NCBI GenBank assembly: GCA_001938485.1
Contig: MQRK01225287.1
Span: 1-64,000 of the forward strand
Length of the DNA: 64,000 bases
Reading direction: 5' to 3'
Origin: Girardia tigrina
Taxonomy: Eukaryota
Part shown: positions 7,440-49,770 of the stretch, piece by piece
How the letters are laid out: every line of letters begins with the position of its first letter
How positions within the stretch are numbered: position 1 is the first letter of the stretch
The notes under the pieces: model-generated
Told to the model about the DNA's origin: nothing
Database searches by the model: none
What the model saw: the letters and a program-made list of their open reading frames with translations, nothing else
Translations under genes and position numbers: made by a program

Positions 7440-7443
7440 TTAA

Positions 7444-7724
7444 TTAAATGTTCTTTCTTTACATAAAATAATTTTTAAATAAAATTAATATGTAAATAAA
7501 AATTAATACTAAAACTACAAAATTGAATTTTAAAAATAAAATCAGAAAATAATGAAAANNNNNNNNNNNNNNNNNNNNNNNNNNNNNNNNNNNNNNNNNN
7601 NNNNNNNNNAATTATCAATTTAGAACGATGTCGAATGACGAGAGTTTCGCTGAGAGTTGTCCAAAAGACAATTCTGATTGTAATGAAAATAAAAGTTTGA
7701 AAACCCATGTTGGTGTTCTTAATA
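7444..7724 (+). mobile_element. TGT..ATA solo-LTR-like family, subfamily B, 5'-truncated and containing an N-gap
   Basis: Near-identical to the reverse complement of 22398-22565; ends GTGTTCTTAATA; the left boundary is approximate. Confidence 0.7.
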
Positions 7725-8024
7725 ATATACAAAACATATCTTGTTATGAGCTTGCACAGCGGTTTTCCCTTTGCGAAAATAATGCAACAAAACATGACGA
7801 ATATGTTCATTTTGATTTTCCATTTCGAATTGACGGTAAAGTAATAAATTAAAACAAAATCANNNNNNNNNNNNNNNNNNNNNNNNNNNNNNNNNNNNNN
7901 NNNNNNNNNNNNNNNNNNNNNNNNNNNNNNNNNNNNNNNNNNNNNNNNNNNNNNNNNNNNNNNNNNNNNNNNNNNNNNNNNNNNNNNNNNNNNNNNNNNN
8001 NNNNNNNNNNNNNNNNNNNNNNNN

Positions 8025-8084
<60 letters not shown>
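8025..8084. repeat. Compound (TA)n(GA)n microsatellite next to an assembly gap
   Basis: Directly visible. Confidence 0.95.
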
Positions 8085-8088
<4 letters not shown>

Positions 8089-10950
8089 AAGCTAATAAAA
8101 AGAAGGGAAAAATGAAGTTCTTAAATTTTTTTCAACAATATTTGTTTGTAAAAAGAAACCTGACACAGTATTATGTATTAATATAGTTTTTACAATCATA
8201 AATATATAAGAAATATAATAAAATTCTACTTTTCACATTTTAATCGCATTCATTTATTTATGGTAAAAGTAATCAAAGTATTGTTCGAAGGTTTTATTTC
8301 TATCAAAATGGTTATTCAAAAATCGGTACTTGAAACTAGTTAAGATAAAAAAATACAAGATTAACAAATTTCTATTCTTAAAATTCTCTTTCTACAAATT
8401 CATATCATTTGATAGTTACTAGTTTAGGATAATTAATCAAGTGTTGATCCGAAAATCAATCTACAAGCACAATCTTTGTTGAAAGTATTTTTTATGATTT
8501 ATTAAAAATTAATATTTGAAAATCATTTTGTTATAATAAATCTCATTATAACAATTTTTCTATCTGAAGTTAACGGTTAATCCATCGAAATTAATAAAAA
8601 ATACATTCTGGTTGTTAAAATTTTAAAAATAATTTATTGTCATTATTTAAATTTGTTCACAGTAAAATACAAAATTTACAAAAGCATATTATTATGACAT
8701 TATTTTTATGCTTCCATTTCTTAATTCTCGTCTTTGATTACCATTTTATATTAAATTTTCTTTAATCAATTTAAAAGCAAACATTTATTCTAAAAAATTA
8801 TATATAATACCCTCATATTTATCTACTATTACAAAAGAAATTCTAATGGCAATTTTTTAATTTAAGTGCCACAGGGCGCTTCTGCAGTTAAACATACCGT
8901 TTTATAGACGTCCAGATGTTAATTATACCTTTAGAAAAAAAATTTAATGATTATTTATAATTTAAGAAACTTATTTGAAACAAAACCAATTAATGAAGAC
9001 ACTAAACTATTATATGATCAAATAAATGTATAATTAAGATATTTCTGTTTTTAATATTTAAGTATTTAAAATGAAGTGTTTTAAAGAGTGTTGCCTGCAG
9101 CTGAAACATTGTTTCCAATATTCATAATGTTTAAAATTTAGATACCAGAAATGCTTAAATTAAGTTTCCATTCATGTCAATGGCGTATTTATGAAGATGA
9201 AGGGTTGACTGATTTAGGTAATGTCGGATATAAAATAATATTTATAACTGTATTTTAAGATGTATTAGAAATTCTGAAATTTCACTGGAGTTTACTTCTA
9301 ATACCTAAACATTTTATATGCTTACACAATGTAGTGATTTCCGAGTCAAATGTATATTCCTAAAGTATAAAAAATCAAACAAAAAGTCGAAAAATGTCTA
9401 CAAACTTAATATTTTAAGTGATTATTTATTTCATAAATTGAATCAATTAAATGTTTTATATTTCCATTTTAATTTTTATTAATTTAGGAAAATGATTTTT
9501 ATGCGAAAAATAGGATAATATCTAATCATATTAATAATATTTTATGATTTGGGTAAAAATATTTAGGGGTGAAGAAGTCAACCCAACATTTGGTTAATAT
9601 GAATCGTAAACCATTGGTAAATAATTTTAATACAAAACCCGATATTCTATATCATAACCACTAATATTATTTATGTTACAAATTGAGATTAATGATAAGA
9701 TAAGATTATTTTTGACTAAGATATGTGGCTTAATTTCTCCATATTTGTAGATCTTGAAGCAATGAATTCTTAAAATAGTATTTACCTCCCGTCTTGTCGT
9801 CTATCACACTTTAATTATAATAATAACAACAAATATTTTCGAATGATATTTGCAAAATAAAACTGTCTTTTTGTACATTTCAAATATTTTTTGTTAGGGA
9901 AATAAAATTCAATTCTACAAGTAATATAATCTAACTAAAGAACATTTGTAATCTGTTCTTAGGAAAAAAGTTTGTAGTAATCAGAAATATTTATATTTTA
10001 TAAATTTCAAATATGAAAATGATAAAGAAATCGGAAAATAGTCTTTAAAATTGAAATATAAAACAAATAAAATTTATCAAACAAATAATTTTATCATAAA
10101 ATTCAAAGTAATATGTAATGACACAAGTATATCAAAGATCAATGTTTAAAATTCTTTTGATCATAATGAAGGTGGATCATATCAATATCAAGTGTTTCGA
10201 TAAGTATTGGGATTTATTATATATTGCCGAAATTAATTTATATTTTCCACTATTTGAATTTAAAAATTTGAGGAAATTGGTTTTAAAAAGATGTTTAATC
10301 AATGAAATATTGATCATTTTTGTCAACAACATGTTCTCTCCACTCGGACAATCCATTAATTATTGTTTTGAAAAGATCAATTGATTCAGAATTAAAAGGC
10401 ATTCATATTTTAGCCAATTTTTAAAATTAATGTTCCTTAGAACGTTTTGCATGCTTCTGAAACGAAGGAAGTTAGATTGTTCTGAATATAGAGAATATAG
10501 TATATGATGTAGAAGTCAGATTTGTGGCTGTATTATAAAGAAGTAGGAAATTCCATTTTTGTTTTATAGTATTCATCCATCAACCTATTTGTTCACAATT
10601 ATCAGTGCAATTGAAGAGACAGGAGTGACATATGTGAGGGATGGAGGATTAACTTCACCAAACTGGCGTGGACAGTGGAAATATACATTGGAGGCATGAG
10701 CTTCCAACTCAAGCATAACTTGGAGAAAATGTCTAATTTTAATATTCCACTCATTAGGAGTTGAAAAGGGAATTTACGTGTTCCTAAAGTAAAAGATTAG
10801 CTTGCAGTACTCATAAGTCATTCCACATTGTCATTAAATCAAAATATTCTGTATGTTTGGAGGTTCTCCTCTTCCAAAAGTTTCATGAATCTTGTCTCGT
10901 TAAACTCGATCAGTGATTTTTCTGGATAACTGGATGGTGTTTATACTCTT

Positions 10951-11412
10951 TGTGAGGAATATTTTAATTTGTTTGACTGTTTAAATGTATGGATGCGGTA
11001 TGTTGATTTAAATATGCTGAATTTAGAATGGTGATTCTCCCACCCAGATGGAAATTGGTATTTTTTTATTTAAATTTAAAGTGATTGACTATTCGAACAC
11101 AATTAAAATTAAGTTTAATATTTTTTAGTAAAATTTAAATTAAATGCATTTTTAATAATTTGATGACATTTTTATTTTTTTAAGATTTATTGAAAAATAA
11201 TAAAAATTATTATTTTTTTAATTAATATTTTTAGAGACTAAATATTTTAAAAAATAATTTAGAAAAATTGTTCGAATAATCATGATTAAAAAGAGAAATA
11301 AGAAAACCAATTAGAAGGATGACAAACGATGAAAGACTTTCTGAGAGTCATAATGACTCTAAATGTGATTGTAATAAACATTCAAACGAGACTTGTTTAA
11401 ATGTTCTTAATA
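10951..11412 (+). mobile_element. TGT..ATA solo-LTR-like family, subfamily A
   Basis: Starts TGTGAGGAATA and ends GTTCTTAATA; flanks CTCTT/ATCTT (5-bp TSD, 1 mismatch); highly similar to 36991-37492 and 48687-49103. Confidence 0.8.
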
Positions 11413-11431
11413 ATCTTATTGCATTAATATA

Positions 11432-12761
11432 TTAGGTGTACAAGTATGAAATGCAGATTTCAGAAAACGGATTGTGCACAATGCAAAAAGTAGGTCAATG
11501 GTTAGGCAATGATGTCATAATATTGAGTAATTATGTAGTGTCTCATACGTAACTCATAAATTGATAAAGCGTTTAATAATTGTTGTATTTCTGTGTTTTA
11601 GATGTCCAAATTTATGCCAAGCAGGGAACATTCGCGGACGGTACTAATTTTTTGTTACCATCTAAAGAAAACTGCTGCTGAATCATACCGNNNNNNNNNN
11701 NNNNNNNNNNNNNNNNNNNNNNNNNNNNNNNNNNNNNNNNNNNNNNNNNNNNNNNNNNNNNNNNNNNNNNNNNNNNNNNNNNNNNNNNNNNNNNNNNNNN
11801 NNNNNNNNNNNNNNNNNNNNNNNNNNNNNNNNNNNNNNNNNNNNNNNNNNNNNNNNNNNNNNNNNNNNNNNNNNNNNNNNNNNNNNNNNNNNNNNNNNNN
11901 NNNNNNNNNNNNNNNNNNNNNNNNNNNNNNNNNNNNNNNNNNNNNNNNNNNNNNNNNNNNNNNNNNNNNNNNNNNNNNNNNNNNNNNNNNNNNNNNNNNN
12001 NNNNNNNNNNNNNNNNNNNNNNNNNNNNNNNNNNNNNNNNNNNNNNNNNNNNNNNNNNNNNNNNNNNNNNNNNNNNNNNNNNNNNNNNNNNNNNNNNNNN
12101 NNNNNNNNNNNNNNNNNNNNNNNNNNNNNNNNNNNNNNNNNNNNNNNNNNNNNNNNNNNNNNNNNNNNNNNNNNNNNNNNNNNNNNNNNNNNNNNNNNNN
12201 NNNNNNNNNNNNNNNNNNNNNNNNNNNNNNNNNNNNNNNNNNNNNNNNNNNNNNNNNNNNNNNNNNNNNNNNNNNNNNNNNNNNNNNNNNNNNNNNNNNN
12301 NNNNNNNNNNNNNNNNNNNNNNNNNNNNNNNNNNNNNNNNNNNNNNNNNNNNNNNNNNNNNNNNNNNNNNNNNNNNNNNNNNNNNNNNNNNNNNNNNNNN
12401 NNNNNNNNNNNNNNNNNNNNNNNNNNNNNNNNNNNNNNNNNNNNNNNNNNNNNNNNNNNNNNNNNNNNNNNNNNNNNNNNNNNNNNNNNNNNNNNNNNNN
12501 NNNNNNNNNNNNNNNNNNNNNNNNNNNNNNNNNNNNNNNNNNNNNNNNNNNNNNNNNNNNNNNNNNNNNNNNNNNNNNNNNNNNNNNNNNNNNNNNNNNN
12601 NNNNNNNNNNNNNNNNNNNNNNNNNNNNNNNNNNNNNNNNNNNNNNNNNNATGTATCATTAGTAATGGAGCATATTTTGAATAAAGCTTTTTTTATCGTT
12701 CTTTTGTTTTTAACGTATTTCTTTTCAAAATTTAATCCGCATTTCATACTTGTACACCTAA
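11432..12761 (+). mobile_element. mariner element of Mos1/mauritiana type; interior hidden by an N-gap
   Basis: TIR TTAGGTGTACAAGTATGAAATGC(A/G)GATT with TA on both sides; about 1.3 kb long. Confidence 0.92.
11602..12684 (+). CDS. mariner transposase (only the N- and C-termini are visible)
   Basis: MSKFMPSREHSRTVLIFCYHLKKTAAESY...CIISNGAYFE* closely resembles the Mos1 termini as I recall them (RTVLIFCFHLKKTAAESH...GKYFE). Whether the ORF is intact cannot be determined across the gap. Confidence 0.8.
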   Translation: MSKFMPSREHSRTVLIFCYHLKKTAAESYXXXXXXXXXXXXXXXXXXXXXXXXXXXXXXXXXXXXXXXXXXXXXXXXXXXXXXXXXXXXXXXXXXXXXXXXXXXXXXXXXXXXXXXXXXXXXXXXXXXXXXXXXXXXXXXXXXXXXXXXXXXXXXXXXXXXXXXXXXXXXXXXXXXXXXXXXXXXXXXXXXXXXXXXXXXXXXXXXXXXXXXXXXXXXXXXXXXXXXXXXXXXXXXXXXXXXXXXXXXXXXXXXXXXXXXXXXXXXXXXXXXXXXXXXXXXXXXXXXXXXXXXXXXXXXXXXXXXXXXXXXXXXXXXXXXXXXXXXXXXXXXXXXXXXXXXXXXXXXXXXCIISNGAYFE

Positions 12762-14099
12762 TAAAAGCACGTGTCGGATGTATTAATTTTTTCAACTTGG
12801 TATTCTATCTTGTAAAACACTTTTAGAGTTAAGTCGAAAAGTTTCAACAGTATATACCAAGTAAAGATGCTGAACATATCAACTATATGTAACGGTTTTT
12901 CAGAAATGTTTGTCGTGGAAACAATCAATCTTAAAAACGGCGTGGACTTAATATTAAACTTAATGCATGAAAATAAATTTCAAATCTCTTTTACTTTGAT
13001 CATTAAATATGTAGACTTTCATAGTTTTATAGTAGAGGTAGAAAAATAATTATTTTCCTATTTTTATAAATAAATCCTATTAAAAATAAGTACATTTCTA
13101 AATGCTTGCCAATGACAATGCCAAAGGATCATAAATTTAGTATACAACTTTGATCCCTATAGAGAGGTTTATAGAGTTTTTATCAATTCGGCTATCTTTT
13201 TATTAAGAACGTATGTTAACGAATAATTGCTTCTCTTTCAAGACATAATATTTGGAACAAAAACTAATAAATCCTATGTTGTTGATATAGACTGACACAA
13301 ATTAAATAAAAGAACAGTGTCAATAAGACTCAAGAAAATGTTTTCAATATCACAATTTCTATCAAATAAAATGAACTTGTTTTTCATTTTACAATTTTTA
13401 TTTTTGTTGCTATAGATTTCTTGAAACAATTTTTACTTTTTGTTTCGTTTTGTAATTTATTTGTCAAAGTTAATTAAAATGAAAAGCAATATTTTTTTTC
13501 GTTACAAGTAAAATTAACAAGTATTAACAAGTGCTTTTTTTAATTTATTTTTTTATCAGCTAAAATTACCATGATATTCATTTATATTAAATAGAAATCC
13601 TATTTTATTACTAGCTCGATTATGCTTTAAAATGATGTAGAAATAAGTAAATAATCTCCTAAATAGAGAAGGAAATAATTTTCACGAAAACTTTAACCAA
13701 TGAGTTTTTATTAAGCATTAAAGCATCTCAATTAAATGACGACAAATTGTATTAAATTGTGTTAATCTTATTTTTTTGTTTAAATATATATTTATAAATA
13801 TGTATAAATATATATTAATTATTTTTTAATTATACATTAATTATCAAAAATATTTATAAATTTATAAAATTAAAATAAAAGATAAAGATGGTAGTATAAT
13901 AAATTTCAATATAATTATTCAATTTTTTAATTAAAAGTATATCAGCAATTTTATTTTGAGTAATTTGAATGTTAATCAATGACTAGTTGTAGTGTCTTAT
14001 CGATAGAGGTTCACAGAAGTGTCACGTGGTGCTGAATCATAACACACTATGATTATCAGTAGTTTACTACATCTGAAAGACCAGTTTTTAACCAATCTT

Positions 14100-15260
14100 C
14101 TGATATTTTTTAAACCTCTCACTGAACCGAAACTTTTCATATAATGGGAAAAGAGTAGGTGAATGTTTCTTTCTTTTTTTTCTGTCTGTTAATTTTAAAG
14201 ATTTCATTTCATTCGTTTTCTATTCTGGTCTGCAACACCAGTCTATAATCTTTCACTAAATGTCTCGTTAACCATTCATTCTTTTTGTAGTTCTGACTTC
14301 AGTTGTCCGTTTGGCATATAAATGAAACAATTCTTTACAATGTTTGTTGATTGTAACACAATCCATGATAATTATTATTATCAGTATTTTTCTGTCTTAA
14401 TCTACAATTTAATTTTTTTTCTTGTAAAACATTCCTTTTTCAGTAACCTCTATTTTGACCTCTCTCGCATTCTATATTTATACTAGATTTTTCTTATGCG
14501 TCCTGTGGTCAAAAAACATAATATCTTACTGGTTTCCTTTCAGACCAATTTCCTATTATGTATCCTTCTTTCCACATCCCAAACTTTTGATTAGTTTTCG
14601 TTTCACTGGTATGACATTCTCTCTGATAAGTTTGACATTTAATCAATTTCGTGTCATAAACATACTTGGTAGTATTTGTTCTTCCGCCTCCTGTTTGGTT
14701 TTGTCTGTATCCACTAATATTTCCTACTGCTACATCACTGTAGCTCCGTGGTCTGTTTTAAATTTCATTGTCTATAACTGTATTCATGTCTTCTGTTGTA
14801 CTCTCTTTCTTTTCTTTTATCTCCTGTATTCATTTAGCCTTGTTTAATTGAAATTTTTATATCTCTATCGATATAGCAATGAAATAATCATGTTTCCTTG
14901 ACGGACTTCTCTTGTTATGTAGTGTTAAAAAATTATGTCTGTGAATCTCTTGATTTTTTCAAATTAAACCTCCTTCATTCTCTAAATGAACGAATCCATC
15001 TGGTCCTCAAATAGTGATAAAGTTCGGGGAAAAGCTTTCGCAATCGGTCTTTGTAACTCACTATTTTTTTCTAACGCTTTTTATTTGTTCTTCCAATCTC
15101 TGTGCAAAAGACAGATGATTAAGACATCCTGTTTAGGCTTCTGGATCACAATAATACTAAAGATTGCCTTGCATTTTAAATAGATGATTGTATTTTCTAA
15201 ACTTTTTGGGCAAATGTTTGTTTGCAAATAGTCCCATAGTAGCATTTTTCGCCATATTAG
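14100..15260 (-). mobile_element. Highly decayed LTR retrotransposon gag/protease region
   Basis: Purine-rich minus strand; a degenerate zinc knuckle (KLIKSLGCGK-EGYIIGNW near 14540-14600); a possible PBS-like TGGCG at about 15250. Confidence 0.4.
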
Positions 15261-16563
15261 TTGCATCGGTATCCGATTTCGTGATTTAAATTTAAAAGCC
15301 GTTTTGCATGCCATTAATTTCATATTATATTTATAATATTTTATTAGAATTAAAATACACTCAGGAGTTGCTTGTTCGTCGATTGTTCTCTATTGATGAT
15401 GATAAATAAAACAAGAGTAACATTAAATAATGAAAAGTTTATGAATGAAAGTTTTGTTATATAGAAAATAAAATATTATATATATTATGGATGAATTATA
15501 TACAACTCGAAAATTATAAATATATTTTTGGATTGAATGTTTTAATTTACTGTGAATATATCTGTCAAACATTTTGAGAATGTTGATTTCTTTATTTTTC
15601 AAGTATATCTGATTTATATTTTGAGTATTTATATTGGGAATTATTATTGATTTAATATAATATAGTATAAATTATAACATTGTTTTACAGCCAATCATTG
15701 ATTAACATTCAAACTTTTACTGTAAATTTGATCCGCGATATGTAAATTTTCTGATCCACTGTAATATACAATTCTCATAAACTCGAAACATTTGATTTTG
15801 TTGTTAGTGTAACTTGTTGCATGTTCTCTTCATTTGTTGTTATTGAGTACGGTGATGAGCACCGGAATACTGTTATATTTTAATAAATTTATTAATGTCC
15901 AATAAAACATACATAAACATATTCTAAATCAGAAAATCAAAATTTATCCTTGTCCTTAATTAATTTTCCTAAATTACCTTTATTTGGAGTTAGTTAAAAT
16001 TTTCGATTCGCCAAATAATTTAAGATTTTTTTAATTCGTAAATTAAAAAAATTAAATAAATACACAAAGTTTTGTAAAATTTAAAAAGTTAAAAATGATT
16101 TTTAAATAAAAAACAAACCAAAATTAAATAATTATATCAAACCAAAAAATGTTTACATTTATAAAAAATTATATATTTTATTATAAAAATAATAAATAAA
16201 AGTTTAAAAATTAAAATTTTAAAATAAATANNNNNNNNNNNNNNNNNNNNNNNNNNNNNNNNNNNNNNNNNNNNNNNNNNTTATAATATTTTTAAGAAAT
16301 AATTTTTTAAATAAAATGCTTGTTGTAAATTAAAATTTAATAGTTTATGATAAAATTTTATAAATATAATTAAAAAAAATTATAATTATAAATTAAATTT
16401 TATAGGTTAAGTTGAAAGAAAAACTATTACTTAATTGGATAATTAAATTCAACCAATTTTATTAATGATAAAATGAAATCCGGATGAAAATTTCCTATTA
16501 AAAACAACACTCATCCATTAAAAAAATATATTTATAGACAATATATCTCGATGGATCAACCGT

Positions 16564-17287
16564 CAGGCGCGTAGGCAGAAAAATATTATGGTGGGGATAT
16601 AATATTACGCAATACCTGCTTTCTTTTTCGAGCTTTTATTTTTACAGTTTAAAAAATTAAATTAATTGTTATTAAAATAATAAAATTTATAATACCATCG
16701 AAATACCACTAATGCAACGAATATCACTTGACCATTGTTCATTACTGGCTTCTTTAGATATGAGCATTTCGTTATCTGCAGCATGTGTTATGTTTTGAGG
16801 AAGAAAAATTTCTACGTTCTGCAAAAATTTAGGTAATTAAGATCATAATTAAATTTTTCGGGGGGGGTTTCTTAAATTTTGAAAATATTAATTGTTTTGT
16901 ATAGTTCACATATTATAACTCAAATATTTTAACTTAATCTTAATTATAGTCAGTTAAAAAAGTAGAAGTAATGAAGAACATAATTTAAATTTTTTGGGGG
17001 ACTTTTTTTAATTCGCAAAATATTAATTATTTTGGAAACTTCACCTTTTAAAATTAAGGATTTATAACTTGTTCTTATTAATATTCAGTTAAAAAAACTT
17101 TAATGTAATTATGATCGTAATTCATTTTTTTCTGGGGGATTTTTTTAATTTTGCAAAATATTATTTATTTTGGATAGTTCAAATTTTAAAATGTTAAACA
17201 TTTAAACTTATTCTTTCGTAATTAAGATCATAATTCAAACTTTTCGAGGGGATTTATCCCCCTAATCCCTCCTTGCGTACGCGCCTG
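16564..17287. mobile_element. hAT-type MITE (724 bp) with an internal tandem array
   Basis: TIR CAGGCGCGTA(G/C)GCA; 8-bp TSD TCAACCGT/TCAACCAT. Confidence 0.85.
16833..17252 (+). repeat. About 135-bp tandem repeat, roughly 3.3 diverged units, inside the hAT MITE
   Basis: Units start GTAAT(T/G)A(A/T)GA(T/A)C(A/G)TAATT at 16833, 16968, 17105 and 17218; each carries a G-run, and the three full units also share AAAATATT and TTCA blocks. Confidence 0.8.
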
Positions 17288-17739
17288 TCAACCATCATCT
17301 TCAGGTCACTGATTAATAAATAATTAATTCACCTGTATATAAATACAATAATGATGATTATGTAATCGATTGCATGAAATCATGCTAATCAAAAATTCTA
17401 ATAAGCTGGTTGAGACTGCCGATTGAACATTGATGTTAGGGCAACGTGACCTAATCAACAATGCTTCACACGACACTCTCCCAATAACTATCAAAATGCT
17501 TACACAATTTTATTAAGGTTAGAATTTCATATTCTGCTATAGTTAAATGAAACACGCTGTAATAAAAACCAAAATGATGCTTAATTATCTATAATATTAA
17601 ATTGTATTATAATTATGATATTGTTTTTAATCGGCATAAATTTAGTTTTGGTAAAACATAAATGTCCAAATTTATATTATTAAATGAGCTTTTCAATAAC
17701 AAAAATGTAAAATGTTTATGATTTTTCAATCATTTGCTT

Positions 17740-21903: not shown

Positions 21904-22267
21904 ATAATCATTTATTAATTTAGTTAAATCCAATAGTCAGGTTTTTCTCAAAAGAACACCTTCAGATGGTTTCTCCATTGAAAGAACAAAAACACTTCCA
22001 TCAAAGTATAAACGCATAGACTGTGATAAATTAAACTTCTTAAAAATTAAAATAGCAATAAAACAATTAATTTAAAAAAATTCGTATGTACAACAAATGT
22101 TTAATTTACCACCAATCAGAATTCGATATTTTTCCTGTGATTTAACACAGATTATTAGTTGAATGTTTTGAGAAGAAGTGTTGCTCTATCAATGGACAAT
22201 TCATCTGAAGATGTTCTGTTAAGAATTAAACGTGATTTTCCATTTTATTGAATTAATAAATGATTAT
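21904..22267. repeat. Old foldback MITE with about 125-bp diverged inverted arms
   Basis: 21904-22030 aligns with the reverse complement of 22140-22267 (ATAATCATTTATTAATT...AGAACA(C/T)CTTCAGATG...TCCATTGA...AACACTTC...CTGTG). Confidence 0.75.
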
Positions 22268-22397
22268 GCAAAAAATATAGAAAAGCGTTATGTACATTAA
22301 TATTTAATTTAGAAAAAGTAATAAAGATCATATATTCAATCTGCTGTAATAGGTATTGCACTTTTTTAAAGTTTTTAAAATTTATATTAATTATTAT

Positions 22398-22826
22398 TAT
22401 TAAGAACACCAACATGGCTTTTCAAACTTTTATTTTCATTACAATCAGAATTGTCTTTTGGAAAACTCTCAGCAAAACTCTCGTAATTCGACATCGTTCT
22501 AAATTGATAATTTTTTGTTAATGTTTGTTAATAAACAATTATTCGAACAAATTTTTCATTATTTTNNNNNNNNNNNNNNNNNNNNNNNNNNNNNNNNNNN
22601 NNNNNNNNNNNNNNNNNNNNNNNNNNNNNNNNNNNNNNNNNNNNNNNNNNNNNNNNNNNNNNNNNNNNNNNNNNNNNNNNNNNNNNNNNNNNNNNNNNNN
22701 NNNNNNNNNNNNTCTAAAATATCAATTTTCCATCTGGGTGGGAGAAACATATTTCCAAATACTAAACTCAACATACAAAATTCAACAAACCAATTTCAAC
22801 ATACCAAATTTAAAATATTCCTCACA
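22398..22826 (-). mobile_element. TGT..ATA solo-LTR-like family, subfamily B (contains an N-gap)
   Basis: Ends read TATTAAGAAC...ATTCCTCACA on the + strand; 5-bp TSD ATTAT/ATTAT. Confidence 0.8.
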
Positions 22827-23989
22827 ATTATCAATAATAATATTTTACGTAAGTATTGTTTTAATAAATATTTTCAATATTGTTTTGAAAGTAAAATTTA
22901 TTTCGATTCATTTTTTATAGTCAAAAAGACATTTATTTCAGAAATGAATTAATAAATAGATTAATCAAAGTGTTATAAATCACTGGTTAATACTTTTCCT
23001 ACATCAGAAGTCATTTTTTACTGATCACATATAATAGAATCGTCAGGTTGTAGCAGCATATGTTAATGCAACATCTTTTTGTTTTTACTAGAGACATAAC
23101 AAGTATCTCACCATGAATATTAAGCTTTAGCGTTGATTTTGAGGTATTTGATAATCTTTAACCATGTAAGGGATAATTTGGAATGTTGTAAGTTTGTTGT
23201 TTGTATTCTGTTTAGATTTGTGACTCTCCTACTCAGATGGGATTGATATGTTTATTGATTGATTATTTGAATCTAATGAAATTAATTTAATGACATTAAT
23301 TTTAAGTACTAATTAATTAAAGTTTGATAATTATGAATTTTAATAATATTTTCAGTAAACGATTTTAACTTAAATTTTTTTTAAATTTAATATATTTTAA
23401 AAATTAATGTTTATTTAAAAAATTACGTAAAATCCAATAAAATTATGAGAAATTAAAATTTAATATTAAAATTCATTGTTTTTTAGATTTGAATACATTT
23501 GAATACAAAAACTATATCAATCAAAGAAAGATGACCTTTGAAAATTGTTGTGAAGAATCTGTTTGTGTTGTCAATAAATGTTTGCATTCAAATTGTGATG
23601 TTGTTAATAAACCGCACTAAACGAAGTAATTTTTCTTTGGGTTCTCATAGAATGAGATTTCTAATCCCCAGTCACAATTATTGTAATCCCTTTCTTTGTT
23701 GCATTTGAACTTTGAAGTGAAAAATGGTCTTTCAATGTTTATATTTTACTTCTTATATTTGTCAAATTACGGCTTCAACTTTTTTTCTTCGAATTATTTT
23801 GAACATCCAAAGCAAGGCTTGCTTTCAATTGTAACGCGCTTTAGTTGCTATTTTCTTCCAGTCAAAACAGAAAACTAAAGCTTTTAGCCAAGGTTTAGTA
23901 TGAAACTTAAATAGATGTAATGATACGTTGATATATATTATTGAAAACTATATGTAAAACCAACAAAACATTCAGAACAGGTAGAACCT

Positions 23990-33925: not shown

Positions 33926-34353
33926 TATGAAGAACACTAATTGGATTTTTAATACATTTATTTGTATCACAATTTGAATCGCTACTAGGACAATGCTCCT
34001 TAAAAACTTTCGTAGCTAGTTATCGTTCATGATAGGTAAATTTAATTCTATTTCTAAATGTATTATTATTTAAACAAATTTAAATTACAATTTATTTGCA
34101 ATTCAATTTCAAAATAATTTGTAATATAAATTACAAAATTAATTTTAATTATTTAAAAAAAATATTTTAGGTATATTATTTGTGATATATTAATTTAATT
34201 TTAAACATGGTTATTTAAATTTTAAAATTGAATAAATAATTCGACGTTTTAAAAACTTAAAATATCAATCTTCCATCTGCTTGGAAGAAACACAATCCTA
34301 AAACAACATACCAAACAACATATAATAAATAAAATTATAAAAATTAATTCACA
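33926..34353 (-). mobile_element. TGT..ATA solo-LTR-like family, subfamily C
   Basis: Ends read TATGAAGAAC...AATTCACA on the + strand; TSD AGAAT/AGAAT. Confidence 0.75.
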
Positions 34354-36310: not shown

Positions 36311-36660
36311 TGTAATATGACATGAAACTGCGTAAGGATGTGTGAATTATTATTATTATGGTTGCTAATTATTATTGAGATTATTATTTATAAACATATT
36401 ATTATCATTATTAGATGTATGTGGAAAGTATGCATGACTATGAAGTATGAGATTGAGTAACAGTTGATTGAGAGTTTGATGATATAATGTATGCATGTAA
36501 TAGTATGCGGTGTCAATCATGTAGTGCTAACCCAGCAGATCTCCCTATTCCAGTTATGCAACCGGATCGAGGTGTGCTTGTATATAAGATATGTCAATTG
36601 AATGATTAGTTCAGTCTTGTGTTGTTAATATATTTTAGGAAATCATCCTGTCTCTTAACA
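36311..36660 (+). mobile_element. Possible solo LTR of a different family
   Basis: TGTAAT start, TATATAAG box, TTCAGTCTT initiator-like site, ends TTAACA; no matching TSD was found. Confidence 0.3.
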
Positions 36661-36990: not shown

Positions 36991-37492
36991 TGTGAGGCAT
37001 ATCTTAAATTGTTTAAATGCGTGAATGTATTGATGATGTATGTTGATTTAAGTATGGTGATATTAGAATTGCGATTCTCCCACCCGGATGGAAATTGGTA
37101 TTTTTTATTTAAATTTAAAGTGATTAACTATTCGAACATAATTAAAACAATCATTTGATAAGTTCATATTTTTAATTTAACAATTAAAATTAAGTTTAAT
37201 ATTTTTTAGTAAAATTGAAATTAAATGTATTTTTAATAATTTGATAACATTTTTATTATTTGGAATTTTATTGAGAAATGGTTAAAATTATTATTTTTAA
37301 TTAATATTTTTTAGAAGTTAAATATTTTAAAAAAGGGCTTAGAAAAATTGTTCGAATAAACATGATTAAAAATAGAAATAAGAAAACCAATTAGAACGAT
37401 GACAAACGATGAAAGACCTTCTGAGAGTCGTAATGATTCTAAATGTGATTGCAATAAAAATTCAAACGACACTTGTCTAAATGTTCTTAATA
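36991..37492 (+). mobile_element. TGT..ATA solo-LTR-like family, subfamily A (longest copy, 502 bp)
   Basis: TGTGAGG...GTTCTTAATA; perfect TSD ATTAT/ATTAT. Confidence 0.85.
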
Positions 37493-40250: not shown

Positions 40251-40822
40251 GTGGATACGATATACACAATTTATTAAACATCAAACATTACGCATCACAT
40301 TTGACCATATGTTTCTTCCATTTTTTGTCATTCAATTAGTACAATTTTTTTAACCAAAAAATGATAAAAGTAAAAATTATTAACAAATCTGATAGGTTAT
40401 GATAGAAAAAAGAAGTGTTTTTTTCCATTAATTACAATTATGTTTTATTAATTAAATATGTAATATGAACAAATTGTGAAAACCCTGTGCCAAGTGAAAA
40501 AGAAATGGATTAACAAATCAAGTGATTCATTAAATTTAAAATGTTATTTAATAAAATCGAAAAACTAGTGAAAGGTAGATACAAAATGCCTTTCAGAACC
40601 ACCTATAATGTTAGCAAGACAACCGGACAGACATTTCAGAAGCAGGGGTTAAAAATATAATTAACAAAACAAATCCAGGCTTATGATACGTGTGATGTAC
40701 TACTTACAAAAAACCACATTTTTTATTAAATAGCAGATTGATTCGGTATGTTTAAATAATGTTTGCGTAAAATTATATCTTCACTTCGGTATATTAACAT
40801 TATTGATCATGTAATATATTAT

Positions 40823-40826
<4 letters not shown>

Positions 40827-40880
<54 letters not shown>
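40827..40880. repeat. (TA)n microsatellite
   Basis: Directly visible. Confidence 0.95.
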
Positions 40881-40882
<2 letters not shown>

Positions 40883-40899
40883 TTACAAAACTATTATAC

Positions 40900-41400
40900 C
40901 TTGTGTCTGACTATAACACTGGCTAATCCACTAAATTACATTAAAAAGTAAATTATACAAATGGAATACACAATGTCTATAAAAAACTGGGTGCAGACGT
41001 TGATTAAAGTCGGTATTAATATTTCCTTTAAAGCATTTGAAATTTAATGTTCAGATTATATTTCTGTTGTTACATCAACAGTTGTCAAGATCATTAATAG
41101 TATCCATTGTTCTTTGTGATACATTTCTGCCAGTGACTATACAGAATTGTTTAATACAATAAAACTTGACTAAGAGTCCTACGAACGGAACTATTGAAGT
41201 GTTTACTAGAAACAAGTGCTGATGATAGTCACTATGTTTATGATAGATATTCCAGGGGACAGATAAAAACCTGTTGTAGCAAGTAACTACAGAAAGGCAG
41301 TCATGTCGGTAATTTGTTGCTTAAAAGAGTGGCTTGCTTGAATTTATGTTAATATTAGTTTCAACGGTTATTTAAAGATTGTTCCAAATAGGTGAAACTG
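40900..41400 (+). mobile_element. RTE-like LINE 3' coding remnant
   Basis: KAFEI*C.. and IFQG...RQ traces resemble the RTE C-terminal AFEMWxYRR and G.I.G.R..GRQ motifs. Confidence 0.35.
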
Positions 41401-41892
41401 TTCTTAATTTAATGAGAAAAATGTTATTGGAATAGTATCAGTATACGTAAAGATTTACAAACAGGAAATGATCTAAGATAATGTTTTCCAAAGACTATTA
41501 ATTTTAATTGAAATTGGATATTTTAAACAATTATATTGATGTTAAATGTTTTTTTATTTTAAAACATTGTTTATTAGAGGTTTTTTACACACTCGGATTG
41601 AATCATTGTTCATTAAGGTCCAATCTTATATAATTAATAATTTTGTCGACGTAAATGTACTTTAAATCCGTTTTATTTGACAAACTGAAATCATTTTTAC
41701 AATTTTTTCTTAAAAAATAAAATTGATACAATAAACAAATAATAATTTTAATCGATTAATTATGCTAATATTACACATTTTGAGGGGTAGTTCAATAATT
41801 ATGTTTGGTATTCCGTCCTAGGCGAATTTTATTAGATTGCTTTCATCAATTTTATAGTTTTTAGTAATGGTTAGGAAAACATATATTACTAC

Positions 41893-42383
41893 TATTATCA
41901 ACACTAATATGATTTCCAATACTTTTATTGACATTAAAACTCGAATCGTCTCCAGGACAGTTCTCCGCAAAACTTTCGTAGTTAGACATCGTTCTTGTTT
42001 GATAAATTTCAATTCTATTTCTAAAACTTTAATAAGTCGAAAAAAAATAAAATTACAACTCCTTACTAAAAACATTATTAAATTATATTCAATGAAATTT
42101 TAATTCATTTTATATATAATTTATGATTAAATAAATCTTTACTTTACAATACACTATTTAAATATTTAAAATCATTTTCAAACAGATTTAAAACATTTTG
42201 ATTTAAATTTATATGTATTGATTAAAATATATTAATTTAATTTTAAAATTTTTATTTTCATTTTTGAATTATTCGAATAATCCGAAGATACAAAACATTA
42301 AAATATCAATCTTCCATCTGGATGGGAGAAGCACAATCCTAAAAACAACATACAATAAACACTATTCGAAAATATTCCTCACA
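41893..42383 (-). mobile_element. TGT..ATA solo-LTR-like family, subfamily C
   Basis: Ends read TATTATCAAC...ATTCCTCACA on the + strand; perfect TSD ACTAC/ACTAC. Confidence 0.85.
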
Positions 42384-43079
42384 ACTACATTTCAACAACT
42401 AAAAAACAGCTAAAAATCCTTTGAAGACGAAATTATAAATAAATAAAAAACGTTTGAAAAGTGCCACCTATGTCGCCTATGTATAGAAGCGGACTCGTTA
42501 ATCTTTTGTTTTTTGTCATTTTAAATCGAATGAGTGATTGATGTTCGAGTAATTATTTTGAATTTTGAATTTATTTATTAATTTGAGACTTGATTTGCAA
42601 CAGAAAATATTGGTAAAAGAAATAAAACGTGATTGGAACTGATGTCAAACAAAGTATTAACTATGAAATTGAGGGATTAAAACATAAATATTTTGCTTTC
42701 CATGTCAGAAATATAAATATATGTTGATGATTTTTTCTTTGTTGTCGTATTGACAATTTTATTTTAATCATGAAATAATGACAAGATAAGTCGATTATAT
42801 TCGGTTTTTATTATAATTTATTGAGAACTATTGTCAATTTTGAATGAATAATGCTTATTAGGAATTGATTAAAGCAAATAAAACCCTATTTCGATTTTTC
42901 AACTCAATCACTGTTTTTGATTATTTTAAATTTTATTTACTAAATATCATAAAAATTAAATTTTATTCGTTTTGTTATTTTTTTTTAAAAAAATTAATTT
43001 AATGTTTATAATTTCTATATTAAAAAATAAAATATTTTTTTTATTTTGATAAAATTATTTCGTAATTTTTAACTATAAT

Positions 43080-43880
43080 TTGCTCATGTGTTGCGATACA
43101 GTAATTATCATTAGTGTTGTATTTTTATTCTTTATTATTCCAATGAACTGTGATATATTATTTCAGTGGTGTGTTGATGTGCGTGTGTGTATTTTGTTAG
43201 TGAAACGTCGCCGTATTAGGTCTTCGTTATGATACTAAACAGACACTGACTGTTTCGTCTCTTTTTTTCTGAAGTCTAATGATTATAACAACAACAACTA
43301 CCACGACTAATATTAACACCACTACTCGTGTTATATGTAGACTATCGGACAAACAACAGAGACATGATGTGAGTGAATGGCAGCGGAATTGTACCGACCG
43401 TGTAATGTTATTCAAGTACTGTGTATGAAATCTAATCTGCCTTGACATTGTAACAATCATTCAAGCTGTGACTGTTGTGAGTGTGCGTGTATGTGTGGCG
43501 TGTCGGTGTGTTTGTGTGATCAAATGAAACTCTGTTGATTGCGTGTATATGGTCTCGTCGCCGATTTCAACGAATCTAATAGGAATGTTTGTTGAAAAAA
43601 CATTCTCTATTTGTATCTCGTAGATCTCGTTTCGTTGTTTCTTTGCAATAAATGGCTCCAAACGATTGTGTTCTGGGAATGGTTTCGTTTGCACTGCCTT
43701 TCATACTCATACGAGATGATATTAATATTATATTATGTCATACTATTATCCACAAGTTTCTTTTTACTAATTCAATTAATTTGCTTTTTGTACAATATTG
43801 ACGATGATGAATAAATACGACTGGTATAAGTCGGCTTAGGGTATTATTTTGTGATTACGAAGAGACATTCGGTACTTGAT
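43080..43880 (+). promoter_or_regulatory. Probable promoter or long non-coding first exon of the + strand gene
   Basis: An apparently unique, CpG- and GT-rich, TE-free block with (GT)n- and (CAA)n-like tracts, 1.5-2.7 kb upstream of the spliced exons. Candidate donors lie at about 43825-43872. Confidence 0.4.
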
Positions 43881-44088
43881 GAGGACGATTTGATTTGAAT
43901 TTAACAAAAAACTTTAATTTTATTTTCAAATTTAAATGTAAATTACTTTTAATTTTCTAAAATCGATTTATTTATTTATTTAATCATTTTTTGTAGCATT
44001 TAATGAATTTTATTTAATGATATTTGATTATTATGGATGGTTTTTGTGTATTACATTTGATAGGATCGAAGAGATAATCTTTTATTAC

Positions 44089-44576
44089 TATTAAGAACAC
44101 TAAAATGATTTCCAATAATCTATTGACGTCACAACTCGAATTGTCACCAGGACAATTCTCTACAAAACTTTCGTAGTTAAACGTAGTTCTTGATTGATAA
44201 ATTTAAATTCTGTTTCTGAGTCTCTAATTATTCAAACAAATTTAAATTATAATTCCTTAATAAAATATTTTCAAAAATTATTTTAATGCATTTTAAATAC
44301 ATTATCTGTGATTAAATAAATCTTTATGTTACAGTCCACTTTTAACATATTTTAAATTATTTTCAAAAAATTTTAAATGTTTTTATTAAAATATTATTAT
44401 ATATATTTATTGATTAAAGTATATTAATTTAATTTTAATATTGTTATTTACATTTCAAAATTGTCCAAATAATCGACTGTTAAAAACCTAAAAAAATATC
44501 AATCTTCTATTTGGGTGGGAGAAATACAATCCTAAAAACAACATAACATAAATACCATTTGAAAATATTCATCACA
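44089..44576 (-). mobile_element. TGT..ATA solo-LTR-like family, subfamily C
   Basis: Ends read TATTAAGAAC...ATTCATCACA on the + strand; TSD degenerate (ATTAC/CATAC); aligns end to end with 41893-42383. Confidence 0.78.
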
Positions 44577-45399
44577 CATACCGTTATGGAGATTTATTTA
44601 TCAACCATTTTGCTACGTAATTTTTCTCTTAATATTTCCTTTTTTAATAATCTTTCTTTAAATCAATTACGTATATAAAGAATCGAACAGAACCATAGAG
44701 AGGTTAAAGTTAGAGGAAGACAATACTTTTTATATGGTCACATGAAAATTGTGTCTTAGTAAATCTTGTTTAATTATTAATCAATTAACATTAACACCAA
44801 CATTTGTTTCTTTATTTTAATGGGGTAACTTCTTTATAACGCCAGTTTGAAATCATCTAATCAGTTTTACCTCTAATTGTAAAGTAACATTTACTATGGT
44901 CAATAAAAATTATTATTAAAAGATTATTAATTAATTATTGAGTCTAAACAATTTTTAATTAAATAACAACAAAAAAGTTATTTTAGCAATATAAGTTATT
45001 GGATTTTCCACCATCTTCAGGTTTCTTGTTTATAAATTTTCTTGTGACGTGTGAAATACCACATGAATGGGAAAGAATTCTCGTCATCTATATAAGCGGA
45101 TTTACGATCATAGACGATTAGGTGGTTGTAGCAATATTTCTCGACATATGGAAGTTTGTATGACGGATGTTAAAATAACCGATTTAAAAATTATGATGAG
45201 TTAGTTAAAATTACATGTCGCTAAATAATTTATTTATAAAATTCAAATTTAATTTAACTTTTCAAATTTACAAGCCTTATTTTTTATCAGATTTTTATTT
45301 TTTTTTTAAATTTATAAATCGTACTTTCAAAATTTAATTTTTTCTAATTATAAATGTTTTTTTCTCATTTTCTCTTATTCAAAATTCTCTTTTATTTAG

Positions 45400-45474
45400 T
45401 CAAATTACCAAACAATGAATCTATCAATTTTTTAATTTTTTCAAAAATTCAACATTTTTTCAATTGTTTTGCAG
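45400..45474 (+). other. Putative non-coding (5' UTR) exon
   Basis: Long pyrimidine tract plus TTTATTTAG acceptor at 45399; CAG|GTAATT donor at 45475. An in-frame stop relative to the next exon argues for UTR. Confidence 0.5.
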
Positions 45475-45751
45475 GTAATTAATAACAAAAACAGAACAAA
45501 TTAAAAGTATTCTACTTAGCTTTAAATAAATTATTTTTAATGGTTGTCTAAATGTCCAGACTGATATTGTTGGATTTCAGTTTTTATCTTTATCCTTGAC
45601 GCTTATTTATTTCATAGTCTTCCGTTATGCAATTTGTTATTCTTTTTCATTAAATAGAAATCGTTGTATAATAAGATTTTAATAAAGTATAAATTTTAAA
45701 TTTGGAATTTTCATATTGGTTTTATTTTAGGGTTCATCTAGGATCAATAAA

Positions 45752-45932
45752 ATGGTGTCCTTACCTGCAGAGCATAATTTTCGAGGTAGATTAATTCCAA
45801 TGAATCACACGAGATTTCCATTCCCCCAAGGACCTCTCCTTTTTAGTCCAGACGGACAGAGAATGCGGCCGAATTGTGCTGGGCCATTTGTGTCAAATAA
45901 CATGCCAATGATTCACCGTCAACCGATACCAG
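45752..45932 (+). CDS. First coding exon (exon 45731-45932) of an unidentified host gene with a Pro/Met-rich N-terminus; no downstream exons were found in the window
   Basis: TTTTATTTTAG acceptor at 45730, AAAATG start context, MVSLPAEHNFRGRLIPMNHTRFPFPQGPLLFSPDGQRMRPNCAGPFVSNNMPMIHRQPIP, CAG|GT donor at 45933, and exon-like GC elevation. Confidence 0.7.
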
Positions 45933-46999
45933 GTTTTTTTTATTATAATACTATTATTTATTATACAAATAATGATAAATTTTGAATGTATTTATAAGTC
46001 GGAAAGTACCGAAAAAAGAAAAATAAGAAGTAAATACCAAAAAAAATAAAATTACATTCGTTTTTAATCCTTAATTAATTAATTATTAAGATTAATTATT
46101 AAAATTTATGTGATAAAAATGCAAATTAAAAGTACAAAATAGTAGTAATAATCCAAATTATGTTTCAGTTAATTTAGTATTTTATATAAAAATAAGTAAT
46201 AATGTCTTTAACATTAAAATTATTTTTTGAAATTTTTTTTGATAAAAAAAACAATGTTTTTATCGGATTTCCGCTAAAACTTCAACATAAAATTTTTTCT
46301 TTATTTTTTTTGATATTTGCGAACACCATTTATGTTTTGATTGCGGAATTTCATATAATGTACAATTAAAACTATTGTTTGATTTATTTTATAATATTTC
46401 AGTAATAAAATATTGAAACTCATAACTGTGAGGGATATTAATTCTTGACGAAACTAAATCTCTTTGAAATTGGTGAATTTCACAAAAATTAACTATTATT
46501 ATTTAATTAATCAGTTGTGTACACGAAATCAATAATGAGAATTTTTAAGCATTTCTTAATTTTCTTTTTTTATATCACATTTCTAAAAAGAATTCTCTCA
46601 AATTCATTTTTCCAAAAGTTTAATTTGCAAACTTTGAAGTTAGCTTTCTGTTAAGAGCTTTTGTTTCATTTCACCTGATAGATGATGTTGTCATTCATTT
46701 CTTATATATAAGCGTTGACAAAAACTTATAATCAGTTATCTAAAGATGACGGTAAAGCCCTTGATATATATTTTCGTAATATATAATTTAAATGATGTTC
46801 CTATTGTTATTTTTATTAAAGCATTTTAGTAATAAAACACATTTTTATGTCAAAATAAATTTGAAATAATTAAATATAAATAAAAATACTTTTCAATAAA
46901 TTAATTAGATCAAGAAAGATATCGCTCTATTGCTCATATCATTTGCAAAACAAATAATAAAAAAAATTATAGATCAAAAACTATTTTATTATTAATAAA

Positions 47000-47583
47000 G
47001 AATCTCTTCTCAGTTCGTTGAAAAATTTAAATATCGTGACATGTTATTATAGTGACTATTACAATCAGATGAAGAAATTTCGAGAATCAAAACAATACTT
47101 TGCTCCATTAATAGTATTTCATAGACACATCTATGTCTTATAACAAGGTTTTTCCATTTCCAATACAATTTTCAGTTGGATTCAAAAACGCATAATACGA
47201 TGGTATATATTAAACAGAAAAACCATCAAAATCAAGATTTTTGTAGTGATGGATTCGCGTGTTGTCAAGTAACTATGCGGGCAAATCAGTTTCATTCGAA
47301 TAACATTTTACTGTTAACTCAGTTAAACAATTCTGGAATTTTATAAATTATGATACAATAAACAATTTTTATTCATTGCAGCAACGACTGAAATATTTCT
47401 ACTTCTTGTCTGCAGAACTGAAATCTTTCTGAAAATTTCCAGCATGATACCTTCCTTTTCTTGGTTGTGTACAAACCCTGAAGACAACATCATCGACAAA
47501 AACAAAGAATTCAATATGAAAGGCTTGCTCCAATCTACAACACTGACGAAATAGCTCGAAAACTGTACGGGGTCAAAACTGCC
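47000..47583 (+). mobile_element. Possible Merlin/IS1016-like remnant
   Basis: FCSDG and HFTVNS traces; GG-type terminus GGTCAAAACTGCC ending at 47583. Confidence 0.3.
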
Positions 47584-48283
47584 TTGTTTATAATTTTTTA
47601 TAATTTTTTTTGTTAGATTTTATAATTTGTCACAAAATATTTTTAAATATCACAAAAATAAATAATTTACACAAACGATCGAAATAATTTACCAATTTTT
47701 ATTTTATATGACAATCATCAGGAATAAATAAATAAAATTTTCAAATAACCAAAAAAGAATGAATAAATACTTTATATAAAAGTTTTAATATTAACACTTT
47801 ATTTTATGAGTATGACAAATATACAATTGCTCGTAGAAATGTAAGTCTGACAGTCTGTTGATATGATCCTATCACACGCTGAACTTTTTACGAAGATTTT
47901 CATAACGCATTTTCCAATCTATAAACATGGCAGTTTTGACCTAGAATCTCGAAAACATGTTATATCCCTGAAATTAATAAAAATAAATAATAATAACTGT
48001 TTCATTAAATATACTGAAATTTATATAAAATGTTAGACAAACAATAATCTTTGAAAAATATGTAAATCTAATTATTGTAATAATATGTAAATATTGCATA
48101 TACATCTCATAATATGCAAATAACTTTGTAATATTCTAATTAAAGTAATTACAGTACTCCAATACCGATGTTATATGGAAAATATATTTCACACCAGAAG
48201 CATTTATCAATATACATCATAGTACCTTGCGTTAAAATAAAGTATTTGTACGATTTTTTACAAATGTACATTTTTTATCTATA

Positions 48284-49770
48284 CAGGGTGATCCTAGCCC
48301 ATTTTCAGTATTTTAAGTATTATACACAAACACAACATATTTTAACAGAAGAACATTTATTATATAAAATTTTTTTGAAGTGTTTAATTTTTTTTATTTG
48401 CGACGATTTTGAAAATATTTCCAACCAAAGAAAGTATTGAAATGATTATTATTTATGCGAAATATGAATCGTACACCTTAGTGAAACGAGATTTACTGGA
48501 GAATGGTAGTAGAACAATTTAATCACATAATACTTTATTAAATACTTTCAAAAATGGATGAGCGAGTTAGGGGGAAGAAAGAAAAGCAGTAATTGAAGAG
48601 TCGTAACCATTCAAAGCACATTAAGAGCGAGTACCAAATTATTCCCATAAAAATATTATGTTTTGTAGGAACTGTTTAAATAAGATTATTAAGAATTTTT
48701 ATTACAATCACATTTAGAGTCATTACAACTCTCAGAAAGTCTTTCATCGTTTGTCATCATTCTAATTGGTTTTCTTATTTCTCTTTTAATCATGATTATT
48801 CGAACCATTTTTCATTTGTCAATAAATCCCAAAATAATATAAATTTCATCAAATTATTAAAAATACATTTAATTTAAATTTTATCAAAAAATATTAAACT
48901 TAATTTTAATTGTTAAATTAAAAATATGAACTTATCAAATGATTATTTTAATTATGTTCGAATAGTCAATCACTTTAAATTTAAATAAAAAAATACCAAT
49001 TTCCATCTGGGTGGGAGAATCACCATTCTAAATTCAACATACTTAAATCAACACACAGCATCACTACATTTACACATTCAAACAATTTAAAATATTCCTC
49101 ACAAAGATAATGTAGCAAGAGGGGCTATGTGTGATACGCTACTTGTCAAATTTGATTCCACAGACATTTTCTTGATCAAATTCTGTTCTCAGGTGAGACA
49201 ACATTCACATTTTATTTAACTGTAAATCATAACAATATTTGTATATGGGGGACCCATCCACCAGACGAAGTATCGACGCATGCATATTCAAGTCCAAAAA
49301 TAAAGTTTGAATTGCAATTTGTTGTAGTTTATTGGATCACCATTCTTTTTCGATCACAATACACTTAATGCTGTAAACTATAATGATATGTTGACGAGAT
49401 TTTGAGTTCATGTGTTAAAGTCTCAAATATGATATTCTCAAACCATGCTCCAGCAGGATAGAGCTCCTGTACAATACGCAAAGGATATACTGAATTTCTT
49501 GGACTTAGTTTCCCAAAATGTTTGATAGGAAGGTATGATCCCATTCCTTAGGTAGCAAAATTACTAGATCTATCACATCTAGACGTTTGAAGATCTATGC
49601 TGAATTAGAATTGACGTTTCTGTTTTATGAAAACTTGAATCAATTGAAGACAAATTTTTGCATACGAAGAAATAAATAAAGTATAAATTTTCAGTTTAAT
49701 TGTTTATTTGAAAAGAAAGATTTCCACGAAAGGAAGCAATTTTAAATAGCATTCTCATGAAGTCCAGTAA
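48284..49770 (+). mobile_element. Decayed Tc1/mariner element of DD41D (rosa)-like type, interrupted by a TGT..ATA element
   Basis: TA-CAGGGTG start; KLFP*K...EL...D|NVAR..MC across the insertion; QILFSGETTF...VNHNNICIWG; LQQDRAPVQY; IGR; LLDLSHLD. The right end is uncertain. Confidence 0.7.
48687..49103 (-). mobile_element. TGT..ATA solo-LTR-like family, subfamily A (small internal deletions)
   Basis: Perfect TSD AAGAT/AAGAT. Removing the element plus one TSD rejoins the host transposase reading. Confidence 0.87.

Follow-up and report, generated by a model that had tools for sequence, protein, structure and literature searches.

Solo long terminal repeats of a tRNA-Arg-primed Ty3/Gypsy family in Girardia tigrina end in TA, probably through silent drift at a gag codon

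A 64,000-nucleotide stretch of the Girardia tigrina genome (GenBank assembly GCA_001938485.1, contig MQRK01225287.1, positions 1 to 64,000 of the forward strand; hereafter the window) contains eight related repeats of some 420–500 bp that start with TG and end in TA. As standard teaching holds the terminal CA to be invariant for integrases of the retroviral type, the locus raises the question of what these repeats are, whether TA is their genuine end, and how that end came about. The original prediction, made from the window alone, took them for solo long terminal repeats (LTRs) of a very successful lineage whose unique 5′ region (U5) ends in TA for reasons other than decay, and named as the alternative a Ginger-like miniature inverted-repeat transposable element (MITE) with asymmetric ends. 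We find that the repeats are solo LTRs of a Ty3/Gypsy family and that TA is the real LTR end, and we think it probable that the underlying C-to-T change is tolerated silent drift.

The nature of the repeats follows from full-length copies found elsewhere in the genome. Because these copies, of ~5–6 kb, carry an LTR pair, a primer-binding site (PBS) without spacer, gag, a pol in the −1 frame encoding protease, reverse transcriptase (RT), RNase H as well as integrase in that order, a polypurine tract (PPT) without spacer, and target-site duplications (TSDs), the window repeats are solo LTRs of a Ty3/Gypsy family; same-orientation LTR pairs around gag-pol, with PBS and PPT, were what the original prediction had proposed to search for. 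Pfam matches in pol run in the order RVT_1, RT_RNaseH_2, Integrase_H2C2 and rve, while the protease is recognized by a weak match (E 0.07) plus an LLDTG motif. The integrase is nearest to those of prototype foamy virus (PFV) and Ty3 among solved structures, and gag is Ty3-type in its resemblance to the Retrotrans_gag and Ty3_capsid clusters (0.92–0.95). Pol overlaps gag in the −1 frame, with a GGGAAAC heptamer and hairpin in four of six matched copies of subfamily A, and a GAGGGGGA-like PPT abuts the TG of the 3′ LTR; no env was seen in the full-length copies. TSDs of two-LTR copies are exact at L146 (TGATG), L160 (TCAAT) and L349 (GAATT), have one mismatch at L158 and L159, and are without a match at L094, and the LTRs of a pair are 94–97% identical in all four cases measured. 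Every full-length copy examined has stops, frameshifts or gaps. Searches for LTR–internal junctions gave at least 40 matches each for subfamilies A and B, both LTRs were present in only one of 20 subfamily-B regions, and internal pol was not obtained for subfamily C. The nearest proteins are ~60 metagenome records (44–75% identity) without family names; one metagenome relative (~75% pol identity) has the same ends and layout as the window family and a zf-CCHC match in gag (E 0.003), and a scan of IMG/VR gave four matches of a 16-mer. Internally deleted elements of ~0.9 kb (LTR, PBS, gag start and a piece of the 3′ LTR) with one and the same structure lie at two loci, L025 and L063, that at L025 having a matching GAAAT duplication.

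These copies also dispose of the Ginger-like MITE. The TGT start, the TSDs and the rarity of internal sequence (two of 50 unique copies PBS-joined, see below) would all suit such an element, yet the same sequence flanks an RT-bearing gag-pol as a direct-repeat pair with PBS and PPT. Ginger1 and Ginger2 are described as having terminal inverted repeats (TIRs) of 40–270 bp and TSDs of 4 bp, with 5 bp only in TDD-4/5 (PMC2836005; here and throughout, the cited sources were drawn on in part). In the present family no such TIRs exist, only seven of the first 11 bases being inverted; RT and RNase H accompany the integrase, in place of an integrase-like transposase alone; and the TSDs are of 5 bp, none of 48 being exact at 4 bp. 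We rejected the MITE on the RT-bearing two-LTR copies, the TIRs and the TSD length, and leave it practically no probability.

Two DNA searches of the genome gave 3,130 and 5,964 candidates, and the termini were tabulated, as the original prediction had suggested, on a pooled set of 60 searched loci and five other complete window copies, which after removal of six truncated and nine duplicate copies left 50 unique ones. TG starts 45 of the 50 and TA ends 45 of the 50, with CA at the end of one. When the penultimate base is left free, the end pattern matches 9,501 places against 426 in the control, and in the first 100 of these 9,501 the base is T in 96, C in three and A in one; at least ~9,000 matches above control stand for one 15-base end motif, in an assembly with some duplicate contigs. 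TA likewise ends 29 of 31 and 29 of 30 PBS-joined LTRs in two sets and all 14 PPT-joined LTRs, and many contigs from other public runs end exactly at both LTR ends with unrelated flanks. Just two of the 50 unique copies are PBS-joined, running directly into a TGGCGAC-type sequence and then into gag, protease and RT; most copies have no internal sequence, and solo copies far outnumber full-length ones. TA is the real end of the LTR and not decay, as had been predicted. Decay of CA after insertion might be expected in a 1.43-Gb, fragmented and very A+T-rich genome (the window is 26% GC) with copies ~8–20% diverged, but TA occupies 96 of the first 100 matches, both LTRs and the metagenome relative, and is found in one family whose divergence is just 5.5%, whereas CA persists in sister families of comparable age. 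On the TA counts we rejected decay as well, and consider it very improbable.

The duplications are not due to chance. Among the 48 unique copies without PBS, 20 have an exact 5-bp TSD and 37 have one with at most one mismatch, whereas shuffled flank pairs from the same 48 copies gave 0.95 and 3.4; duplications of 4 or 6 bp were exact in none. Five bp is also the TSD length of Ty1. Target sites show a weakly palindromic preference (A at −3 in 27/37, T at −2 in 25/37, A at +2 in 23/37 and T at +3 in 23/37) instead of the R-T-N-N-T bias read earlier from the window copies, which fits only nine of 37 TSDs.

The primer can be read from fossil plus-strand copies. The primer is tRNA-Arg(ACG), and the first base copied beyond it is the last A of the LTR; we identify it as such because LTR ends are joined to copies of the mature tRNA including its CCA. 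At 49 places, against none in the control, an LTR end adjoins a 16-nt stretch that is the complement of mature tRNA-Arg(ACG) with its CCA, and the genomic tRNA-Arg(ACG) genes have no encoded CCA. An 18-nt tRNA copy is the usual plus-strand strong stop, and exactly this length is found in five of ten loci read (two of which share flanks), with 19–39 nt in the others; at L203 all 76 tRNA bases are copied. The element's own PBS pairs perfectly over only 7–10 bases, and over more with a bulge. We attribute the shortness of the PBS to the fact that gag runs across it and the LTR end, since a long tRNA copy shifts the frame: an 18-base tRNA copy running into gag does so in three of three copies. Tf1-like self-priming, which was considered for the short PBS, was dropped given the tRNA-joined copies.

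Several observations accompany these joints. LTR ends joined to 34–76 copied tRNA-Arg bases were seen at L203, L388, L392, L394, L395, L399 and other loci, and 11 of 14 such loci stop at tRNA positions 35–40, immediately 3′ of the anticodon, where RT would be blocked by a modified base 37. At L392 the order is LTR end, tRNA copy and LTR start, resembling a two-LTR junction. Tandem arrays of tRNA-Arg(ACG) genes with ~430-bp spacing lie at L385 and L386, one gene copy having a GCG anticodon, and the idea that inosine was read as G in the L203 tRNA copy was dropped, this genomic gene copy having the same anticodon.

The right end of the LTR is also coding sequence. Its last A and the first two PBS bases, TG, read as an ATG in frame with gag, and that frame stays open upstream to an ATG inside the LTR, over 31 codons in subfamily A, 32 codons in each of B and C, and either 22 or 26 in D-like families. 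The last 93 LTR nucleotides are open in this frame in 23 of 28 A copies and 18 of 25 B copies, against ~5% of shuffles; the other two frames are open in 0–1 of 28 copies in A and in 0 and 11 of 25 in B, and the preceding 93 bases are closed. What is new here is that the gag frame starts within the LTR and runs on across both its end and the PBS. Many CA-ending families (L305–L334) have a Met 5–16 codons upstream within the LTR, with a frame of 31 codons at L307, and the clade as a whole may start gag within the LTR. Because AATAAA (Asn-Lys) is conserved inside an otherwise fast-changing peptide, it likely acts as the poly(A) signal. The left end is coding as well, as the KPRGM-stop terminus of pol spans the PPT/LTR junction; the last A of the purine tract and LTR bases 1–5 make up Met-stop, which accounts for the TGTGA start. 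At the right end the penultimate base is a third codon position (AAC/AAT, Asn; Tyr, TAC/TAT, or His in sister families), and for this reason CA to TA is a silent codon change.

Sister families in the same genome place the TA end in a history. Families F1, F2 and F5, with ~215-bp LTRs ending in CA, match the TA family in PBS, lack of spacers, 5-bp TSD length and junction ATG, at ~45–65% pol identity by segment. Genome-wide, TA–PBS junctions number 4,818 (control 189) and CA–PBS junctions 2,683 (control 166), six of the first 30 TA loci and three of the first 30 CA loci being unrelated to the clade by eye. The abundance of the latter bears on whether TA was selected for the initiation of reverse transcription, for RNA structure at the PBS or for the context of the junction ATG. 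Such selection would fit a change that recurs only at the primer-proximal end, where the penultimate base is the second copied after the tRNA, and a PBS that is short and lies inside coding sequence, but CA families with the same primer are also abundant, and we regard this explanation as improbable.

A quick RT tree, from which A_L146 and B_L345 were excluded for their shortness and in which several long branches stem from frameshifts, groups subfamilies A, B and D together; our conclusions rest on an integrase tree (23 rows; six of 15 element rows dropped as partial or redundant). TA is likewise the end of a further family, F3, with 89 of the first 100 among 306 matches and all 28 loci in F3 context; the two CA loci among 30 read belong to a sister family, and four of four F3 solo copies seen whole have exact TSDs. 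On integrase, F3 groups with the CA family F2 (100/100), and a single TA clade is rejected (approximately unbiased test, p-AU 8.9e-6). TA likely arose at least twice among these related families, judging by the integrase tree.

If TA arose repeatedly, the integrase might have changed each time, its recognition of the penultimate base having been relaxed or shifted separately in every TA lineage. We looked for an integrase column common to every TA row but missing from every CA row, and found none (15 rows, six families); the catalytic loop and helix around the catalytic Glu are identical in one TA and one CA family, and F3 and its CA sister have their last five codons identical except for the silent penultimate base. 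The same enzyme must, moreover, still accept CA at the left end. Co-evolution gains from the near fixation of TA within families (96 of the first 100 matches), which are not mixed, and from reports that term CA essential for retroviral and Ty1 integration (PMC8487063, 10.1101/137141); with no shared diagnostic residue we nonetheless hold it to be unlikely.

We therefore favour, with good confidence, a compact Ty3/Gypsy element primed by tRNA-Arg(ACG) and surviving mostly as solo LTRs, whose U5 end is TA through tolerated silent drift and not through a new integrase specificity. Reverse transcription would give a cDNA that is nearly blunt, its left end CA-3′ and its right end TA-3′, and, because the 5-bp TSDs are precise, one integrase would join both ends in a concerted step. 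This enzyme would need the terminal A more than the C, and with no protein cost and an A+T-rich mutation bias TA could have been fixed by drift in two or more lineages; the solo copies would then result from recombination between the LTRs of a pair. A broader formulation, which we put forward only tentatively, is that this is an undescribed animal Gypsy clade in which CA was replaced by TA repeatedly and in most copies, with the integrase active site unchanged, because gag is translated through the attachment site and PBS.

A number of points weigh against silent drift of a tolerated end. Ty1 integrase needs CA under physiological metal, such that tolerance is not general (PMC8487063), and no family has TA as a trait of its left end, which tolerance by itself fails to explain. 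The tested TA group was named after the RT tree and integrase alignment had been seen, two gains of TA could instead be one gain with losses, and the integrase rows are mostly decayed and some partial, so that lineage-specific compensations would be missed. TSDs have two or more mismatches in 11 of 48 copies, and a second frame of the LTR end is open in 11 of 25 B copies. Translation from the upstream in-LTR ATG is suggested by openness and length steps only, and we found no frame-specific purifying selection on the in-LTR peptide (ratios of nonsynonymous to synonymous polymorphism, pN/pS, of 0.60–0.78 in frame and 0.42–0.87 out of frame); because of this, it is openness, not peptide sequence, that appears to be maintained.

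With closely related families of both kinds, CA and TA, in one genome, the CA rule becomes testable without engineering, and the CA/TA sister pairs suggest tolerance at one end and not re-specification. Annotation that requires TG...CA would miss or mis-bound thousands of copies in this genome. If the broader formulation is true, the clade would be a natural CA/TA sister-pair series on the DNA-end requirements of integrase, with the primer and the stops at its modifications recorded directly in fossil strong-stop copies.

Within the window, all eight predicted copies are mutually homologous at the coordinates first given, and a ninth, more diverged one had been missed. On the forward strand lie the 3′ part of a subfamily-C LTR (7444–7724; 96.6% identical to the 22.4-kb copy over 7610–7727, with an N gap at 7559–7609 and its left part lost at a TTAA-flanked insertion), a subfamily-A solo LTR with open terminal frame (10951–11412; TSD CTCTT/ATCTT), the ninth copy, a D-like solo LTR (23165–23609; TGTAA...AATA, TSD AACCA/AACCG, 26-codon terminal frame open, 86.5% identical to the PBS-joined LTR in L287), and the subfamily-A reference copy (36991–37492; TSD ATTAT). 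On the reverse strand are solo LTRs of subfamily C (22398–22826; TSD ATAAT, internal N gap, 32-codon terminal frame open), B-like (33926–34353; TSD ATTCT), B (41893–42383; TSD GTAGT, 32-codon terminal frame open), B again (44089–44576; degenerate TSD GTATG/GTAAT) and A with internal deletions (48687–49103; TSD ATCTT, inside a decayed transposase-like stretch). The TSDs given in the original prediction hold. In the reference copy, on the forward strand, the TGA of LTR bases 3–5 (36993–36995) is the pol stop codon when the LTR is a 3′ LTR, the ATG with 31 open codons occupies 37399–37492, the last base of which, A, opens the junction ATG if a PBS follows, and the candidate poly(A) signal AATAAA, in frame as Asn-Lys, lies at 37453–37458.

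All seven complete copies of the original eight start with TGTGA and all eight end in ATA, as predicted; the longer end motif GTT(C/G)(T/A)T(A/C)ATA, claimed for every copy, is present in seven of the eight, the exception being the 48.7-kb copy with a 26-bp deletion near its end. AATAAA does lie near the right end in seven of eight, starting 37–40 nt from the end in six, instead of the 30–35 nt first reported, and 17 nt from it in the copy with the 26-bp deletion; one copy lacks it. It had also been claimed that excising the 48.7-kb copy rejoins a transposase frame: the flanking frames are in register and the claim is plausible by eye but unconfirmed. These frames resemble a Tc1/mariner transposase, although none of three frames tried had a Pfam match and no homologue was found among the collected loci. 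No empty-site joint was found among the matches listed in four runs; the LTR boundary itself, 49103–49104, is a break point of many contigs from four other runs, with unrelated flanks. The right LTR end as gag coding sequence, and the likely multiple origin of TA, go beyond what had been predicted.

Other features of the window were noted in passing. The insertion that abuts and truncates the 7444 LTR piece is of 232 bp (7204–7443), with CCCTACAATGC inverted ends between TTAA sites, and we take it to be piggyBac-like. A decayed integrase of a related family, 44% identical to family A, lies at ~790–1650 on the reverse strand, and after it come a purine tract and, at 1002, TGTTAG. At ~36340–36629 (forward strand) a sequence with a TGTG start and TGTTGTTAATA end, without matching TSD, is possibly a further diverged LTR, and long inverted repeat pairs unrelated to the LTR family, at 56879–57949 and 21904–22267, are probably DNA transposons. 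Outside the window, beside a full-length copy in L061 (1986–2654, reverse strand), lies what we assume to be a flatworm-like innexin exon.

Set beside known systems, the family shares with Ty3/Gypsy the LTR pair, PBS, zinc-knuckle gag, the protease–RT–RNase H–integrase order, overlapping frames, PPT and 5-bp TSD (PMC8632968, PMC4974528), and differs in its TA right end, zero spacers at PBS and PPT, gag start in the LTR, tRNA-Arg primer and GGGAAAC −1 overlap. Its TG...TA termini depart from the TG...CA typical of Ty3/Gypsy, which is not defining, as errantiviruses lack it (PMC5408687). These Drosophila elements, with AGT...AnT ends, are likewise animal Gypsy without TG...CA, but both of their ends are changed and many have env, whereas here one base differs at one end and no env was seen. 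Ty1 is similar in its short PBS inside the GAG frame and in ends without 3′ processing, and dissimilar in being Copia-type, in its tRNAiMet primer and in keeping TG...CA, the CA being needed in vitro (PMC4974528, PMC8487063); the Copia order, integrase before RT, is reversed here, with integrase after RT–RNase H. The planarian Burro/GYPSM1 elements are also abundant flatworm Gypsy, but exceed 30 kb with many extra domains, against 5–6 kb here (PMC6431247).

The closest parallel for the termini comes from plants, where TG...TA ends are known as the TGTA type (10.1101/137141, PMC9804982). Non-TGCA elements make up ~1% of plant LTR elements and are 89% Copia among those classified (10.1101/137141); in lotus, 941 TGTA Copia copies amount to 2.5% of lotus Copia, and constraint is weakest at the third of the four terminal bases (PMC9804982). 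The TG...TA termini, ends of one type that are not monophyletic and the weakly constrained third base are common to both, but the plant elements are mostly Copia and rare, whereas here an animal Gypsy clade has more TA than CA junctions with this PBS (4,818 against 2,683). We found no animal Gypsy with TG...TA ends in the literature, including the parts drawn on of PMC4202319, PMC10886601, PMC6238403, PMC13524379, PMC8632968, PMC4558846, PMC11410931, PMC6431247 and 10.64898/2025.12.11.693146; Repbase, which holds planarian Gypsy families, was not searched, and the TA family may already be catalogued there. The TA end taken alone is a known exception; it is the repeated switch from CA to TA at a silent codon position, the sister pairs and the recorded primer that lift this family above the routine.

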